Assembly (NCBI GenBank): GCA_023404495.1
Contig: JAEYBE010000045.1
Span: 6,970 to 70,969 of the forward strand
Length of the DNA: 64,000 nt
Direction: 5' to 3'
Origin: Actinomycetes bacterium
GTDB lineage: Bacteria; Actinomycetota; Thermoleophilia; Solirubrobacterales; JACPNS01
This document shows, one piece after another, positions 41,451 to 47,727 of the stretch. The notes beneath the pieces were generated by a model. The model ran no database searches. It had not been told where the DNA came from and saw nothing but the letters and a program-made list of their open reading frames with translations. The stretch's first letter is position 1; every line of letters begins with the position of its first letter. Made by a program: the position numbers and the translations under genes.

Positions 41451-42290
41451 ATGGGCAAGAGACTGATACTCGGAATCGCCGTCGTGGCGGTACTCGCATT
41501 CGGCGCGACCGCATCACACGCCGCGCTGCAGAATGCCGTCTCGGTGAAGGTGAACTTCAAGAAGGCTGGAGGGCCGGGATCGCTCTCGGTTCAACTGATC
41601 AATATGGACGATGTGCCGCTGCCCGAGGGCAAGCCGTTGTCGAAATCGTCAATCAACGCACGGTTGTACGACGGAGGCCTCGTGCCCCAGCGCATCAGCC
41701 GGCTGATCGTGCAGTCGAGTTCGGCGAAGTACAACCGCAAGGCGCTGCCCTACTGCAAGGTGATCTACAACGGGCAGAACAAGATCCCGACGCGCGCCGA
41801 CGGCATCACGGGCGCGGAAGAACTGACCTACGTCCCGGGCGAGAAGAACTCGAGCTCGGTGAGCAAGGCCTGCCCCAAGACGAGCGTGCTGGGCAAGGGG
41901 AACTTCACCGCCGTAGTCGGCACGCCAGGTCAGCCATACGACCCGTCGCAGGCTGGCGCACTCGCCGGAACGGTGATCGCCTACAACTACCAGCCGAGAT
42001 CGGGCGACACGATGGGCTCCGTCGTGCGCCTGCACGTGGACAGCCCGGTGCCGGCCAACCAGTACCTCTACGTTGGCGTGAGCAAGAGCGGCATCTTGCG
42101 GGCGGACGTACCCAGGCGTTCGGAGATCCCGACCAACCTCGACGCCACGATTCCGGCAGGTGAGGTCTCGATGACGAGCCTCGACCTCAAGCTCACGGCG
42201 CCCAAGCCGAAGAGCAAGCGCGGCAAGCCGATCTTCACGATCAAGTCCTTCAAGAGCTTGAACGTGTACGGACAGCTCGTTCGCGAGTAA
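41451..42290 (+). CDS. secreted hypothetical protein
   Basis: GGGGAGGA RBS then ATG 41451. Signal peptide MGKRLILGIAVVAVLAFGATASHA. The longer ORF upstream lacks coding character. Confidence 0.65.
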   Translation: MGKRLILGIAVVAVLAFGATASHAALQNAVSVKVNFKKAGGPGSLSVQLINMDDVPLPEGKPLSKSSINARLYDGGLVPQRISRLIVQSSSAKYNRKALPYCKVIYNGQNKIPTRADGITGAEELTYVPGEKNSSSVSKACPKTSVLGKGNFTAVVGTPGQPYDPSQAGALAGTVIAYNYQPRSGDTMGSVVRLHVDSPVPANQYLYVGVSKSGILRADVPRRSEIPTNLDATIPAGEVSMTSLDLKLTAPKPKSKRGKPIFTIKSFKSLNVYGQLVRE

Positions 42291-42459: not shown

Positions 42460-43038
42460 ATGAACGCACGCAAACCACTCACGATGTTGATGGCGGTAGT
42501 CGTCCTCTGTCTGGCCGCATTCACTGCTGCCGGCTGCGGCGACGACAACGAGTCATCGACCGCGGCCACCACGGCCGAGACCGGCACGATGACCGACAGC
42601 ATGGACATCGTCGCAACCGCGTCTGACACCGCGGATCTTTCGACGCTCGTAAAGCTGGTGACCGCGGCCGGACTCGTCGAAACGCTGCAGGGCGAAGGAC
42701 CCTTCACGGTCTTCGCGCCGGACAACGCCGCGTTTGACAAGGTCGACGCTCAGACGCTGAAGGACCTGCAGGACCCGGCCAACAAGGAACAGCTCAAGGC
42801 CGTCCTGACCTACCACGTCGTCGCTGGCGAATACACCGCAGAGGACATCGTCAAGCTGGCCGGTGAGGGCAAGAAGCTCAAGACCGTCCAGGGCGAGGAC
42901 CTCACCCCCGAGGTTGACGGTGAGACGGTGACGCTCAAGGACGCCAACGGCAACACCGCGACGGTGGTGAAGGCAGACGTGATGACGTCGAACGGGGTCG
43001 TGCACGTGATTGATGGAGTGCTGTTGCCGAAGAGCTAG
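42460..43038 (+). CDS. fasciclin (FAS1) domain lipoprotein
   Basis: Lipobox AAFTAAGCG. FTVFAPDNAAFDKV and NGVVHVIDGVLLP are FAS1 H1/H2 motifs. AGGAG RBS. Confidence 0.9.
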   Translation: MNARKPLTMLMAVVVLCLAAFTAAGCGDDNESSTAATTAETGTMTDSMDIVATASDTADLSTLVKLVTAAGLVETLQGEGPFTVFAPDNAAFDKVDAQTLKDLQDPANKEQLKAVLTYHVVAGEYTAEDIVKLAGEGKKLKTVQGEDLTPEVDGETVTLKDANGNTATVVKADVMTSNGVVHVIDGVLLPKS

Positions 43039-43134: not shown

Positions 43135-43944
43135 CTAGTCCTGGCAGGTAACCGAGCGATTCTGGAGCTGACCAAGCCAGCCAGAAAAACTGTCGGCTGG
43201 GTTGGTAGCCGCGATTGAGAGCCTGCGGTAGGTGAGATAAGCGCCGCAGTGGCCGGGGTCGGTCGCGAGCAAGTTGACCGAGAACGAACGCTCGCATTCA
43301 CCGCCGTCTTCGCACTCGGGCCAGGTACCGTACGCCTCGGCCGTCGCGGTCGCCGATGCCGTGGCGGTCCCCCAGCCCGACCACTGGCCGACCAGATTCA
43401 CGCTCAACCAATTGTTGGCAACGACAGTGAAAGGCTTGAAACGCGGGAGAAAATCCTGCATTGTCGGATACTCGGCTGAAGAGCTCCACTCGGCGGGAAG
43501 GTGGACACGAGCGTTGGATCCCCCGGATCCGCAGCCGAGAACCGCGTACTTGGACCTCGCCCGCATCCTCTTCCAGAAACCGGCCTTGCGCTTCTGGCGC
43601 CCCTTGAACGACAGCCGGAAGGTCGTGTAGACGCGGTCGGCCCCGCAGACCTTCTTTGACCCCAGGATGATCTTGCCGGATGCGCGGATTCCGCCGCGGT
43701 TGTAACAGTGATCGCAGAGGTACCCGGTGCCGACCGCCTTGGTGCGGCCCCAGTCCTTCCACTTGCTCACCCGGAACGTTGAACCGGAGCCGAACTTGAT
43801 TGCTGTCGGACGATAGGACAGGGGTCCGTACTCGGCGATCGGGTAGACCGACGCGACGGTGCCGGCCTGTGCTTGCGGTGCTGCGGCCGCAATGAGACTT
43901 GCGGCGAGGATCGCGACGGTTGTGGTTCGCCTAACCCGGCGCAC
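43135..43944 (-). CDS. secreted protein, WxxWG-repeat family paralog 1 (two repeats)
   Basis: GTG 43944 overlaps the upstream TAG by 1 nt. Signal peptide TTTVAILAASLIAAAAPQAQA. Repeats: FRVSKWKDWGRTKAVGTG...CGADRVYTTFRL and LVGQWSGWGTATASATA...CGAYLTYRRL. Confidence 0.65.
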   Translation of the reverse strand: MRRVRRTTTVAILAASLIAAAAPQAQAGTVASVYPIAEYGPLSYRPTAIKFGSGSTFRVSKWKDWGRTKAVGTGYLCDHCYNRGGIRASGKIILGSKKVCGADRVYTTFRLSFKGRQKRKAGFWKRMRARSKYAVLGCGSGGSNARVHLPAEWSSSAEYPTMQDFLPRFKPFTVVANNWLSVNLVGQWSGWGTATASATATAEAYGTWPECEDGGECERSFSVNLLATDPGHCGAYLTYRRLSIAATNPADSFSGWLGQLQNRSVTCQD

Positions 43945-44711
43945 TAATTGTCGTCCCAAGGCATCACGTGGAACCAGCTCACCGTACGAACTCCGCGCGC
44001 GCACGCGACGCGTTGGGCTGGATTCCCGCTGCCAACACCGACAAAGAGATCCCCGGTATTTCGGTAGACCTTGCATTTGAATCGGTTTCGCCGAATCTTG
44101 CAACCGCTGCGGGCGCATCGGCTGGTGATCCGGTTGTTGACCTGTCGAGCGAGCTTCAGAGCCCGACTGCAGCTGTACTTGTACGAACGGACATCCGAGC
44201 CGATCCAGACTGTGCGCGGTGGATCGTGCGTGTCGCCGCAGAAGCCGTTACTCGTGTACTCGCCGTACTCGTCCGCGCAGATGCTCGTGAGTGAACCCCA
44301 GCGATTCCAATCGCCAAGCGGTCCGCCGGGCCAGTGGGCTATGCGGAGTTCAATCTGTGTGTACGCCGGACTAGTGCCATCGGAGCATGTGCCGATCTGA
44401 GTCGCGCGCAGGTGTGCTCGCCCGCGTTTGTTCCAGTACCCGCCGCCGGGCCGATAGATCGAGTTGTATCCGCGAGCTGTGGCGGTTGCCGAGCCCCAGT
44501 TCTTCCACTTCAGGTCGTAGAAGACCGTGCTTGGAGGGCCGCCGCTGGTCACGACCGCGGGTGCTTCGGCACCGAATCCCGCACCCATCGGAAACAGGTT
44601 TGGCGACCCGAGCACCACCGCGCCTGCTGATCCAGGGAGAACCGCCAAGAAGGCGATGCCGCAGATGCTTGCGACTGCGAGGTTTCGAATGCTCATCTCA
44701 ACTACACGCAA
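43944..44711 (-). CDS. secreted protein, WxxWG-repeat family paralog 2 (one repeat plus Cys-rich C-terminus)
   Basis: Signal peptide MSIRNLAVASICGIAFLAVLPGSAGA. Repeat: FYDLKWKNWGSATATARG...AYTQIEL. Confidence 0.65.
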   Translation of the reverse strand: MRVVEMSIRNLAVASICGIAFLAVLPGSAGAVVLGSPNLFPMGAGFGAEAPAVVTSGGPPSTVFYDLKWKNWGSATATARGYNSIYRPGGGYWNKRGRAHLRATQIGTCSDGTSPAYTQIELRIAHWPGGPLGDWNRWGSLTSICADEYGEYTSNGFCGDTHDPPRTVWIGSDVRSYKYSCSRALKLARQVNNRITSRCARSGCKIRRNRFKCKVYRNTGDLFVGVGSGNPAQRVACARGVRTVSWFHVMPWDDN

Positions 44712-45525
44712 CTTTCAATTTGAATTGCTTCTTCGGGAATCCATTTGGACGGCCACTGGTGAACGTGGCGTTTATGCGCGTGAAGTAACGCTGTCCGCCG
44801 CACGCTCGAACGCGACTGAGTCTGACCTTCACTGGCCATGACAAGCGACGATTGGCCTGCGGTGAACCGGGCTTCGCCCGCACCAGGTAGCGGCCTCGGC
44901 CTCGCGCTGATGACTTGTTCCACTTCTGCCACTTGAGCTTGCGAAAGCCCTGGTCGCTGCCCACTCCGCCGACGAAGATCTCACGCGGCCTGAGCTTCGG
45001 CACTCCGCCCATGTCCGAACCGCCCAGTGCGTTGAAGATCTTCGGCTTCGAGCTCGGCGTCGTGCAGTCCAAGTCGTAGCCGCCTGGCGAATATGTGCCG
45101 GCGGGTTCCCCATACGGATTTCCGTCGGTGAGCTCCGCGGTCCAATCGACGCGCGTGTAGTAGCTGTCGGCGCCAGTTGGAGACGAACACATTCGGAGTC
45201 CGCTCACCACAAGCGTTGCCGGATAGCTCGCCGTGAAGCCATCGGCGCAGCTCGGTTCGCAGTTGTTTAGCAAGACGTTGCCGCTGGCCACTGCCGTCGC
45301 ACCGCCCCAGCCGGTCCAGGCCAGATTCGTGAAGTAGGGACTCCCGCCGGCGCAGCCTCGGCTCCATTCTGCCGGTGAGGCCTCGTCGCCGTATGCGCCG
45401 ATCACCCCGCACGCGGGGAGCAGAGCAGCATCGGCGGTAGGCGCCGACGCCGCCCATCCGCAGCCAGCCACGGTCGCTATGGCCAAGGCAAACCAACGGG
45501 ATGCCGACGAGCGACGCAAGGTCAC
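44698..45525 (-). CDS. secreted protein, WxxWG-repeat family paralog 3 (two repeats)
   Basis: Signal peptide or lipobox ALAIATVAGCG. Repeats: FTNLAWTGWGGATAVASG...SYYTRVDW and FRKLKWQKWNKSSARGRG...CGGQRYFTRINA. Confidence 0.65.
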   Translation of the reverse strand: MTLRRSSASRWFALAIATVAGCGWAASAPTADAALLPACGVIGAYGDEASPAEWSRGCAGGSPYFTNLAWTGWGGATAVASGNVLLNNCEPSCADGFTASYPATLVVSGLRMCSSPTGADSYYTRVDWTAELTDGNPYGEPAGTYSPGGYDLDCTTPSSKPKIFNALGGSDMGGVPKLRPREIFVGGVGSDQGFRKLKWQKWNKSSARGRGRYLVRAKPGSPQANRRLSWPVKVRLSRVRACGGQRYFTRINATFTSGRPNGFPKKQFKLKVACS

Positions 45526-45657
45526 TTGCTGCCCTTCAGCTCAGATGGTGTAGAGAGCGCACGCAAATCGGATACAGACTATTGATCTCTGACCGTAAGC
45601 CGCATTCGGTAGCAAGGCTGGAGACAGCGACCTCGAGCGGCATACCCCGGAGTCGAC

Positions 45658-46041
45658 TCAGGCGCCGGTCCAAACGCAGGGCTTTGACATCAGCGAAGCC
45701 ATATTGGAGGTCGAATCTCCGGGATTGCGCCATGTCACCCGGGTATAGAGCCAGCTGCCGCAGATTCGCTTCGGGCGCGACAACCTGACCGTCACGCGAG
45801 CGGTGTAGGGCTCAGCCTCCGGGTACTGGGTGTGCACCGTCGCGCGAGCTACCGCCTTCGCGTCGTTCCATTTGGACCATTTCATCTTCGTGAAGTAAGA
45901 GTGGTTCAGGCCGTGGAATTTCTTTGGCTTGTACTTCTTGCCGCTCGAGGTCTTCAGGCGTGGCGAGGCGCTGGCCGTGGTGGGAACCGCCATGGCAAGC
46001 ACAAGTACCGCAGCCAGAATGAGGGTTCTGATTGCCATCAC
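45658..46041 (-). CDS. secreted protein, WxxWG-repeat family paralog 4 (single repeat)
   Basis: Signal peptide MMAIRTLILAAVLVLAMAVPTTASA. Repeat: FTKMKWSKWNDAKAVARA...CGSWLYTRVTW. Confidence 0.65.
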   Translation of the reverse strand: MMAIRTLILAAVLVLAMAVPTTASASPRLKTSSGKKYKPKKFHGLNHSYFTKMKWSKWNDAKAVARATVHTQYPEAEPYTARVTVRLSRPKRICGSWLYTRVTWRNPGDSTSNMASLMSKPCVWTGA

Positions 46042-46127: not shown

Positions 46128-46991
46128 ATGGCGAATCTGAATCTGCTCAGCATGCGAGCCAGCATCGTCGCCCTGCTGGCGCTTGGTATCTGCCTGGCCG
46201 GCTGCGGAGGATCTAACGACTCTGCCTCACTTGACTCAATCAATTCTGACGTGCAGGCCAGTACTGAACAGCTCAATACTGCGCTCGGAGAGGCCCGCGC
46301 GACGAACCGAACGTCGATGGTGAACCTGCAGGCAGCTGCGTCCGCAAGCGCGGAGACGATCTCCAACGGAATCGAAGAAGTCGATTCCCTCGATGCGGAT
46401 GGTGAGAACGCGGACGAGATCGAGTCCTACCGCAAGGCGCTCGTCGCTCAGCGTGCGGTTGCGCAGGCGCTCGCTGCGGGCCGCCCGTCAAGTTCTCAGA
46501 TCGAACTCGCCGCCGCCAAGGCCACCCTTGCGCTCAACTCGGTCACCGGCCAACAGCTCACTGCGATTGACGTCAGCGCGCTGGTGCATTCACTAAAGAA
46601 GTCGCGAAAGAAGTCGGCACCGGCCTCAAGCGGTTCAAGCGGGTCCGGCAACAGCGACAGCGCGACCTCAAGCGACGATGCCACGCGAACTTTCTACGTC
46701 GGGCAGGGGAACATCAGCTGCAGCGTCAGCGCGGCCAGCGCCAAATGTTCTGTGGCGAGCAACGGGATCACGTTCGTAGTCGAAGGCGGCTCGCGAGGAA
46801 TGACCGAGGACGGAGCGATTCTCGGACGAGCTTCTGGAAGCAGGCAGGCGTATGGAACTTCGGTCTCGGTCGGAGACTTCACGTGCTCGATCCCGCCAGA
46901 GTCTCAGGCCAGCGGGGTGTCATGCCGGAACACATCGAGCGGTCACGGGTTTGAGGCCAGCCGGGTCGGATCTCGACAGAAAACTTTCTAG
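46128..46991 (+). CDS. lipoprotein of unknown function
   Basis: Lipobox LALGICLAGCGG, a helical Ala/Ser-rich middle, and a Cys-containing C-terminal domain. Confidence 0.65.
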   Translation: MANLNLLSMRASIVALLALGICLAGCGGSNDSASLDSINSDVQASTEQLNTALGEARATNRTSMVNLQAAASASAETISNGIEEVDSLDADGENADEIESYRKALVAQRAVAQALAAGRPSSSQIELAAAKATLALNSVTGQQLTAIDVSALVHSLKKSRKKSAPASSGSSGSGNSDSATSSDDATRTFYVGQGNISCSVSAASAKCSVASNGITFVVEGGSRGMTEDGAILGRASGSRQAYGTSVSVGDFTCSIPPESQASGVSCRNTSSGHGFEASRVGSRQKTF

Positions 46992-47051: not shown

Positions 47052-47405
47052 TCAGGCCTTCTTCACAACGCTCGACTTGAGCTGCATCGGCCCAAAGCCG
47101 TCGACCCGGCAATCGATGTCGTGATCGCCGACTCCGTCGACCAGCCGTATGCCGCGCACCTTCGTGCCGCGTTTGATCGGGCCGGAGGCGCCTTTGACTT
47201 TGAGGTCGGTGATGACGGTGACGTCGTCGCCGTCCTGGAGAACGTTGCCGGCTGAGTCGCGGATGACGCGCTCGGGTTCCGATGTTGCTTCAGTCTCGGC
47301 GCCGGGAGTCCACTCGTGCTGGCACATTGAGCAGACCTGTTGGCCGTTTTGCTCGTAGGTGTATTCGGATTGGCAGGCTGGGCATGGGGGATCTTGTTCT
47401 GGCAT
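47052..47405 (-). CDS. phnA: PhnA zinc-ribbon protein
   Basis: CPACQSEYTYE...CSMCQHEW zinc ribbon, then DSAGNVLQDGDDVTVITDLKVKG...IKRGTKVRGIRLV...HDIDCRVDGFGPMQLKSSVVKKA is typical PhnA. ATG 47405. Confidence 0.85.
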   Translation of the reverse strand: MPEQDPPCPACQSEYTYEQNGQQVCSMCQHEWTPGAETEATSEPERVIRDSAGNVLQDGDDVTVITDLKVKGASGPIKRGTKVRGIRLVDGVGDHDIDCRVDGFGPMQLKSSVVKKA

Positions 47406-47439
47406 CTGGGGGAGGTTAGGTTGAAAGGCAACGGTGGCT

Positions 47440-47727
47440 TCAGCGATCGGCTGTTGCTGCACCGCCACTGCGCGCGTCTTCAACCGAGACGACTGCAACA
47501 AGTGCTTCGTCGACGAGTTCGTAGACGATCAGCATCCAGGACCAAGGTCCCAGAACGAACCGAAATCCATCCCAGTCGCCCGTCAGTTTCGCCCCGGAAT
47601 CCGGAAACCGCGCGAGGTGTGCGACGCAGCGAGCGACACGCTTCCGGGTATCGGCGGGCAGTTCGTAGACTTCAGTCATTCGATCAAGTTGCGCCAACGC
47701 GCTGGGCGAGAACTCGATGCGTGGCAA
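47440..47727 (-). CDS. type II toxin, RelE/ParE family
   Basis: 95 aa with the pattern ...RFPDSGAKLTGDWDGFRFVLGPWSWMLIVYELVDEALVAVVSVEDAR, typical of a ParE/RelE fold. It starts 2 nt after the antitoxin stop. Confidence 0.7.
   Translation of the reverse strand: MPRIEFSPSALAQLDRMTEVYELPADTRKRVARCVAHLARFPDSGAKLTGDWDGFRFVLGPWSWMLIVYELVDEALVAVVSVEDARSGGAATADR

Follow-up and report, generated by a model that had tools for sequence, protein, structure and literature searches.

Why should four adjacent genes for exported proteins carry six copies of a module that matches nothing in the domain libraries, and what might that module do? The question is raised by a stretch of 64,000 nucleotides (nt) from an uncultured soil actinobacterium of the order Solirubrobacterales (assembly GCA_023404495.1, contig JAEYBE010000045.1, positions 6,970 to 70,969; 'the window' below means this whole stretch), in which positions 43135-46041 hold four minus-strand open reading frames (ORFs) in the same direction, genes D, C, B and A. 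An initial annotation made from the sequence had described four consecutive minus-strand genes and a repeated module, and the gene arrangement is confirmed by the ORFs and by independent public gene calls. The module itself belongs to a genuine all-beta family of about 100 residues that is described in no domain or structure database we tried. For its role we propose, at a probability of roughly 0.4, that the domain is a non-enzymatic binding or sensing module of the cell envelope.

The reality of the domain can be judged from profiles made independently of the window. A family hidden Markov model (HMM), built from 74 single-domain relatives of other organisms with no window sequence included, assigns two domains each to A and to C and one each to B and to D. 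A domain-only profile run over six frames of the whole 2.48-Mb genome recovers exactly six places, all of them inside the array (expectation values, E, from 1.2e-29 to 7.6e-6, Table 1), and no copy elsewhere in the 2.48 Mb. The six motif strings quoted in the initial annotation are all present in the translations, and the repeats align significantly under profile comparison, so the six-copy module is real, with each copy significant genome-wide by an independent profile. Pairwise BLAST among the four proteins gives weak but consistent matches.

The repeated unit is larger than the 60-70 residues originally assigned to it, and extends over about 100-120. It starts at a conserved Pro some 25-30 residues N-terminal of the W-x2-W-G motif and ends at a second Cys, 20-35 residues past the C...Y-T-R motif, which is positionally paired with the Cys of 'C-G'. 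Canonical members carry six Cys (C...C-x-G-G/D-G, C-x-P-x-C and C...C); the last pair is kept in all six window copies, and all three pairs are found in C1 only. The invariant or near-invariant columns are restricted to Pro, two Trp, Ala, Gly and Cys, and no conserved polar candidate for catalysis is among them. Because the conserved residues are of these kinds only, the domain would be a binder or scaffold and not an enzyme.

The initial annotation could assign the module to no known family, and this is borne out by every library searched: the module matches no described Pfam family or domain of unknown function, no Pfam-A or NCBIfam model covers it, and neither profile nor predicted fold reveals a relative in the PDB. 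The window proteins have no match in Pfam-A or NCBIfam (best Pfam E 0.07, far under the cut-offs), and no model of either library covers the domain in the relatives compared, six from the same order, ten diverse and 45 longer. In the 45 longer relatives the partner domains are only META, Excalibur and a zinc ribbon, one each. For the window proteins PHROGs gives a single unconvincing match, for D (17 bits, E 0.008), and PADLOC gives none, while sources that name family proteins label them 'hypothetical protein'. An hmmsearch of PDB sequences with the family profile reached a best E of 0.075, driven by a signal-peptide stretch.

Structure prediction gives the family a confident fold with no close neighbor. 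Protein C was folded per domain, its two-domain alignment being chimeric (single-domain relatives are split across both domains). The AlphaFold2 model of C1 (46 sequences) has a predicted local distance difference test score (pLDDT) of 86.8 and a predicted template modelling score (pTM) of 0.78, and consists of successive strands with no helix by DSSP. A model of D, the single-domain protein at 45658-46041 for which the initial annotation had suggested this check, is likewise all-beta, with a like succession of strands and no helix by DSSP (44 sequences, pLDDT 78.7, pTM 0.67). With a threshold of E<=0.001, Foldseek against the PDB matched neither model (the top E-values were 0.27 and 0.15, with template modelling (TM) scores of 0.2-0.4), and a BFVD structure search returned no match. 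Recurring among the weak Foldseek matches were NTF2-like folds (SnoaL-like, the CaMKII hub, VirB8, the PBP2a N-terminal domain and the RsgI9 NTF2 domain), which have a curved antiparallel sheet of about 50-65 residues in common with the models. However, NTF2-like folds wrap their sheet around helices, whereas both models are helix-free, and membership of the NTF2-like superfamily was rejected on the strands-only DSSP assignment together with the scores (E 0.15-2, TM 0.2-0.4).

The family reaches well beyond this genome. A phmmer search with C against 1.84 billion representative proteins returned 992 matches at E<=1e-3 and 56 at E<=1e-10, which defines a family of 992 clusters at 50% identity that is almost wholly actinobacterial and whose members are mostly small (130-170 residues). 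A word-index protein search was nearly blind to it, D finding only itself and two profiles ten matches each. The initial annotation had suggested examining phyletic distribution and copy number among relatives, and the result is a widespread family with 0-1 copy in congeners. Searches of 400 and 300 genomes scored 12-15 candidates per genome, and their counts are lower bounds: a match is present in at least 16 of 400 other Actinomycetota genomes in an even sample (4%), with at most two copies each, and in at least 96 of 300 other Solirubrobacterales genomes (32%), mostly with one or two copies and with a maximum of six. The window genome (G000), with six, ties for the top copy number among the Solirubrobacterales sampled and, among the places listed, is alone in having every copy within a single 2.9-kb cluster; elsewhere copies do occur as adjacent pairs. 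Of 14 genomes in its genus, 4 carry one copy each, in proteins of another build, with an unrelated N-terminal part followed by a C-terminal domain copy. Three g62 genomes (8-10 Mb) with a match also have one copy each.

Loci were confirmed in Nocardioides, Nocardia, Streptomyces, Peterkaempfera, Saccharopolyspora, Actinoplanes, Acidimicrobiales and Conexibacteraceae, as well as in a metagenome-assembled genome (MAG) labelled Bifidobacterium, several freshwater actinobacterial MAGs and one MAG labelled Eremiobacterota. Twenty-five loci were retrieved with a narrow six-sequence alignment and are biased to the canonical N-x-C-E-P-S-C-A subtype. A phage search gave no family match, and a plasmid search gave one, annotated 'hypothetical protein', on the megaplasmid of Miltoncostaea oceani. 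This 170-residue member from a cultured Thermoleophilia species (WP_217924911.1; locus L069, plasmid NZ_CP064357.1, an 816-kb replicon, 166967-167479) is a possible experimental entry point. On one side its gene adjoins a gene for a serine protease and on the other one for a hypothetical protein, beyond which, one gene further upstream, a serine hydrolase is encoded.

By inspection, each of the four N-termini in the array begins with basic residues, continues with a hydrophobic stretch and has a site of the A-x-A type, in agreement with the earlier assignment of signal peptides to all four proteins. The sites read MRRVRRTTTVAILAASLIAAAAPQAQA/G in A, MSIRNLAVASICGIAFLAVLPGSAGA/V in B, MTLRRSSASRWFALAIATVAGC..ADA/A in C, which has a VAGC lipobox in addition, and MAIRTLILAAVLVLAMAVPTTASA/S in D. 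These features suggest that A-D are exported and that C may be a lipoprotein; lipoboxes were also recognized by inspection in the relatives L016-L018, L023, L026, L031 and L094. The mature proteins A-D are strongly basic, with isoelectric points (pI) of 9.6-10.5, and their Cys counts of 8, 8, 8 and 2 (the last in D) are all even. Given the signal peptides or lipoboxes here and in relatives and the even Cys counts, the domain probably works outside the cytoplasmic membrane.

The array had been read as a set of paralogs from local amplification, and here the phylogeny disagrees. Trees were made of 175 and of 56 domains, and an approximately unbiased (AU) test on the quick LG+G4 tree of 56 domains rejects the six copies as one clade, with a log-likelihood difference (delta lnL) of 130 and p = 7.5e-5. 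In neither tree is any window copy nearest another. C1 is 48-49% identical to foreign proteins including P0005, and the identity of C2 is 57% to P0003 and 51% to P0004, with identity among the array copies at about 25-35%. C1 lies in the starred clade of canonical six-Cys domains with P0005, P0006 and P0009; C2 is sister to P0003 and P0004, near D1 and A1; and A2 and B1 group with P0061_d1 and P0154_d2. Branches inside the trees are modestly supported, and the exact placement of A1 and A2, both on long branches, is unsure. The six copies represent three anciently diverged subtypes, namely I (C1), II (C2, D1 and A1) and III (A2 and B1). Two or three domain copies are present in 18 relatives, and most two-domain relatives combine different clades, as do C (I and II) and A (II and III). 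That three old subtypes are kept in one cluster hints that unlike subtypes cooperate.

The proposed role as a binding or sensing module can be spelled out as follows. The domain would be a non-catalytic binding module outside the cytoplasmic membrane, and the family would often serve envelope signal transduction, either as a small secreted protein or lipoprotein whose gene lies next to those of a histidine kinase and response regulator pair or, alternatively, as the C-terminal extracytoplasmic domain of a membrane protein associated with an extracytoplasmic function (ECF) sigma factor. In the window, the four strongly basic proteins would act together at the cell envelope, binding either one another, via pairing of unlike subtypes, or a common ligand, extracellular or of the envelope, and would not be enzymes. 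In its most specific form, the proposal makes this undescribed and almost only actinobacterial fold a plug-in module of envelope signalling that senses or binds partners outside the cytoplasmic membrane, fused to ECF-sigma-linked membrane proteins or serving as lipoprotein partner of histidine kinases, with the three old subtypes used as unlike pairs and A-D forming a free-standing hetero-oligomeric set. We consider this specific form tentative, and rather doubtful in all its parts taken together.

The proposed signalling connection comes from the genes around relatives. The neighbors of 29 loci were clustered to find recurring partners, and the recurring pair is a histidine kinase (HAMP, HisKA, HATPase_c) with an OmpR-type response regulator. 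In two species of Nocardia (L023 and L026) the pair lies directly upstream of the family gene, in the order regulator, kinase and lipoprotein on one strand, and at a third Nocardia locus it is within about 2.6 kb. The pair is convergent with and abuts the family gene in three Nocardioides and in freshwater actinobacterial MAGs. Within Solirubrobacterales, kinase and regulator occur within 5 kb in 6-7 of 40 loci, from three genera, and L094 has an operon of lipoprotein, regulator and kinase. In Saccharopolyspora taberi (L020), an ECF sigma gene (Sigma70_r2, r4_2) overlaps the gene for a 403-residue CU044_5270-like single-pass membrane protein ending in the W-x2-W-G domain. The domain is also at the C-terminal end of two other long proteins, P0079, whose N-terminal part is CU044_5270-like, and P0096.

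A separate observation on these neighborhoods concerns translation genes. The family gene lies within a few kb of rpsL, rpsG, fusA or tuf-like genes at L022, L027, L029, L032 and L034 (freshwater actinobacterial MAGs) and, in Nocardia, at L023 and L026. A kinase and regulator pair accompanies it at L029 and at both Nocardia loci; the remaining MAG contigs do not extend far enough for one to be seen. It is noteworthy that small freshwater genomes have kept the gene.

Two characterized systems resemble the proposed arrangement. CseA, the lipoprotein of the sigE-cseA-cseB-cseC operon of Streptomyces coelicolor, is thought to modulate its kinase from outside the membrane (PMC6767563, citing Hutchings et al. 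2006); the sigE-cseABC operon is reported as confined to Streptomyces. CseA is an exported lipoprotein to which no domain is assigned, encoded directly before a response regulator and sensor kinase, the same order as at L094 (lipoprotein, regulator, kinase). The likeness is one of description and gene order, and the window array is without an adjacent kinase. At the named Streptomyces loci L024, L025 and L028 no kinase lies beside the family gene. LpqB, of the actinobacterial MtrA-MtrB-LpqB system, is an accessory lipoprotein encoded just after the sensor kinase, with which it interacts and which it damps (PMC5845573). The order regulator, kinase and family lipoprotein on one strand at Nocardia L023 and L026 recalls this system. 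LpqB itself is far larger and contains Pfam domains of its own; the W-x2-W-G family is matched by no Pfam model, which argues against the presence of LpqB's domains. By inspection A-D have the exported or lipid-anchored character of such accessory proteins, and a position in a kinase operon is seen in a minority of relatives and not in the array.

For the sigma-linked form, the N-terminal part of CU044_5270 (NCBIfam NF038083, single-pass membrane proteins) is present in L020 and P0079. The match covers the N-terminal and middle parts only, at 79 bits versus a curated cut-off of 100, and the W-x2-W-G domain is an extra C-terminal piece. A-D are without the CU044_5270 part. They also have neither an N-terminal cytoplasmic part nor a sigma gene nearby, and so depart from the layout of an anti-sigma sensor domain, though L020 conforms to it.

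Several points weigh against the proposed role in sensing and signalling. Kinase adjacency is a minority trait: outside the order 8 of 25 loci show it, and among Solirubrobacterales loci 6-7 of 40 do. It comes from few independent lineages, with four of the Solirubrobacterales cases belonging to one genus. By chance about 9% of 10-kb intervals would hold a response regulator (23 per 2.48 Mb), and the adjacency counts are raw. Near the array itself there is neither a kinase nor a regulator nor a sigma gene: receiver domains come no closer than about 27 kb (window positions ~12.7-16.1 kb), and no sigma gene lies on the window's contig. The neighborhoods of three single-domain relatives have nothing in common, and other neighborhoods are mutually unrelated. 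A rule that paired domains combine an acidic and a basic partner, true for C and A, was rejected as it fails in other two-domain relatives. Finally, export, disulfides and operon status are read from sequence alone, and the functional role of every member is a prediction.

Should the link to kinases and an ECF sigma system prove true, the domain would offer a way of learning what certain orphan envelope sensors of actinobacteria perceive; if it fails, this is one more uncharacterized secreted-domain family. With about 1000 clusters at 50% identity, presence in a third of the sampled Solirubrobacterales and cultured carriers in Nocardia, Nocardioides, Streptomyces, Saccharopolyspora, Actinoplanes and Miltoncostaea, the family is a sizeable part of the 'dark' secretome of actinobacteria, with a confidently modelled fold that has no neighbor and a link to signalling that can be tested. 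Since it is unseen by all domain libraries tried and has no structural neighbor, it merits a family model and an experimental structure.

Other explanations of the array have to be weighed against the binding or sensing role. One possible alternative, along the lines of the initial annotation, is that the array is a variable set of surface adhesins or matrix-binding proteins under diversification and differing between strains. The genomic setting is in keeping with it, as genes for further exported proteins surround the array (a lipoprotein with a fasciclin domain at 42460-43038 and two proteins that are unassigned), congeners carry 0-1 copy, and strongly basic proteins could stick to anionic surfaces. 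A comparison with G008, the closest sampled relative, was anchored on HlyIII and a DNA search. The flanks match at 85-89% nucleotide identity (contigs C113 and C24; loci L065 and L068), and the 11.6-kb segment 42430-54047 has no match in the G008 assembly, where contig ends make this 'not found' and not 'absent'. This segment holds the fasciclin gene, the array, a lipoprotein gene, YjdM, a toxin-antitoxin pair, a tRNA-Thr and an integrative element. The left contig of G008 stops at the segment boundary; next to the right flank, G008 encodes a repetitive exported protein of surface type, more than 1148 residues long, in which GHVTVLK motifs recur. The array segment is, from this comparison, a variable locus. 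The copies are nevertheless old subtypes, not recent duplicates, and the family consists mostly of single 130-170-residue proteins at one or two copies per genome, unlike typical adhesin families. No cell-wall anchor, repeat stalk or known adhesion domain was found in the proteins, and the independent assemblies are 100% identical and therefore give no polymorphism signal. On balance we consider adhesins unlikely.

A further hypothesis takes the proteins as secreted inhibitors or decoys that block hydrolases (proteases, lysozyme-like or cell-wall enzymes) of an enemy or of the cell itself. The role would suit proteins that are small, exported, all-beta and Cys-paired and have no catalytic residues, as well as the position of the Miltoncostaea oceani gene between a serine hydrolase and a serine protease gene, and a sensor domain on an anti-sigma-like protein would suit an enzyme-sensing receptor. 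The hydrolase neighborhood was seen once, however, a conserved exposed reactive loop is not evident, and the domain has no likeness in sequence or fold to known inhibitor families, so that we regard this role as decidedly improbable. Lastly, the low identity among the six copies and their weak pairwise BLAST could be taken for chance likeness of motifs or mis-called genes with no real domain, a reading refuted by hundreds of homologues, the family HMM, the genome-wide profile search (E down to 1e-29, six of six copies significant), confident structure models and independent gene calls, and left with virtually no probability.

The features of the array are collected in Table 1. Public gene calls on identical contigs give proteins of 126 (D), 257 (C), 250 (B) and 269 (A) residues, with no Pfam record for any. 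D and C are spaced by 132 nt, as read directly from the DNA. The stop of C (TGA 44700-44698) is separated by 1 nt from the start of B (ATG 44696), for which an alternative TTG at 44711 would give a 14-nt overlap with C, and the stop of B (TAG 43946-43944) has one G in common with the start of A (GTG 43944-43942), a 1-nt overlap. From these junctions C, B and A are predicted to be translationally coupled, and the four genes D, C, B and A form a cluster with a common direction. The public call for C begins 18 codons inside the ORF, dropping the signal peptide and lipobox (45472-45525, minus strand). Relatives align from C residues 4-20 onward, within the N-terminal signal region, and GAAGGG sits 8 nt 5' of GTG 45525. 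Because the relatives' alignments reach the signal region and this GAAGGG lies upstream, the longer form of C from GTG 45525 is most likely the true start.

Table 1. Genes, domain copies and the additional module of the array, with window coordinates; E-values of domain copies are from the genome-wide domain-profile search unless stated
Feature	Coordinates	Strand	Description	E-value
Gene D	45658..46038	-	126 aa, ATG 46038 (alternative GTG 46041); predicted signal peptide and one type II domain; mature pI 10.5, 2 Cys	3.7e-16 (HMM)
Gene C	44698..45525	-	275 aa from GTG 45525; predicted signal peptide with possible VAGC lipobox, then type I and type II domains	
Gene B	43944..44696	-	250 aa from ATG 44696; predicted signal peptide, type III domain, then Cys-rich C-terminal module	
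Gene A	43135..43944	-	269 aa from GTG 43944; predicted signal peptide, then type II and type III domains	
Domain copy D1	45661..45954	-	Type II; basic, last Cys pair only	3.4e-11
Domain copy C1	45061..45426	-	Type I, canonical six-Cys: C..P..W..GC, W-x2-W-G, N-x-C-E-P-S-C-A-x-G; acidic, pI 4.1	1.2e-29
Domain copy C2	44701..45048	-	Type II; pI 12.0, 2 Cys	9e-21
Domain copy B1	44268..44597	-	Type III	7.6e-6; 1.9e-11 (full HMM)
Domain copy A1	43519..43836	-	Type II-like, long branch, tree placement unsure; pI 10.6	1.7e-8
Domain copy A2	43138..43476	-	Type III-like; acidic, pI 4.6	6.3e-7
B C-terminal module	43947..44267	-	107 residues, 6 Cys; no Pfam match; not a domain copy	

The C-terminal module of B was considered as a hidden copy of the family and rejected, the family HMM giving about 0 bits. 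It matches the C-terminal part of P0008 (BLASTP E 1.5e-9). Modules of this type follow a type I domain in P0008 and P0015, and the layout of P0008, domain and then module, is that of B. At L010 in another Solirubrobacterales genome (989-1354, minus strand), a module similar to the C-terminal one of B forms a separate 122-residue exported protein adjoining a family gene.

The G+C content of the array equals that of the surrounding genome, and that of the neighboring integrative element (48-54 kb) is lower. Synteny followed via the fasciclin gene revealed no neighbors in common among congeners. The two unassigned proteins that flank the array are encoded on the plus strand, one of 279 residues with a signal peptide (41451-42290) and one of 287 residues with an LAGC lipobox (46128-46991). 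Neither has a match in Pfam, NCBIfam, PHROGs or PADLOC, and both were rejected as hidden W-x2-W-G members at about 0 bits with the family HMM. The YjdM/PhnA-type zinc-ribbon gene (47052-47501, minus strand) encodes 91 residues in public assemblies and 149 as an ORF from TTG, and the matches of congeners start at about residue 30.

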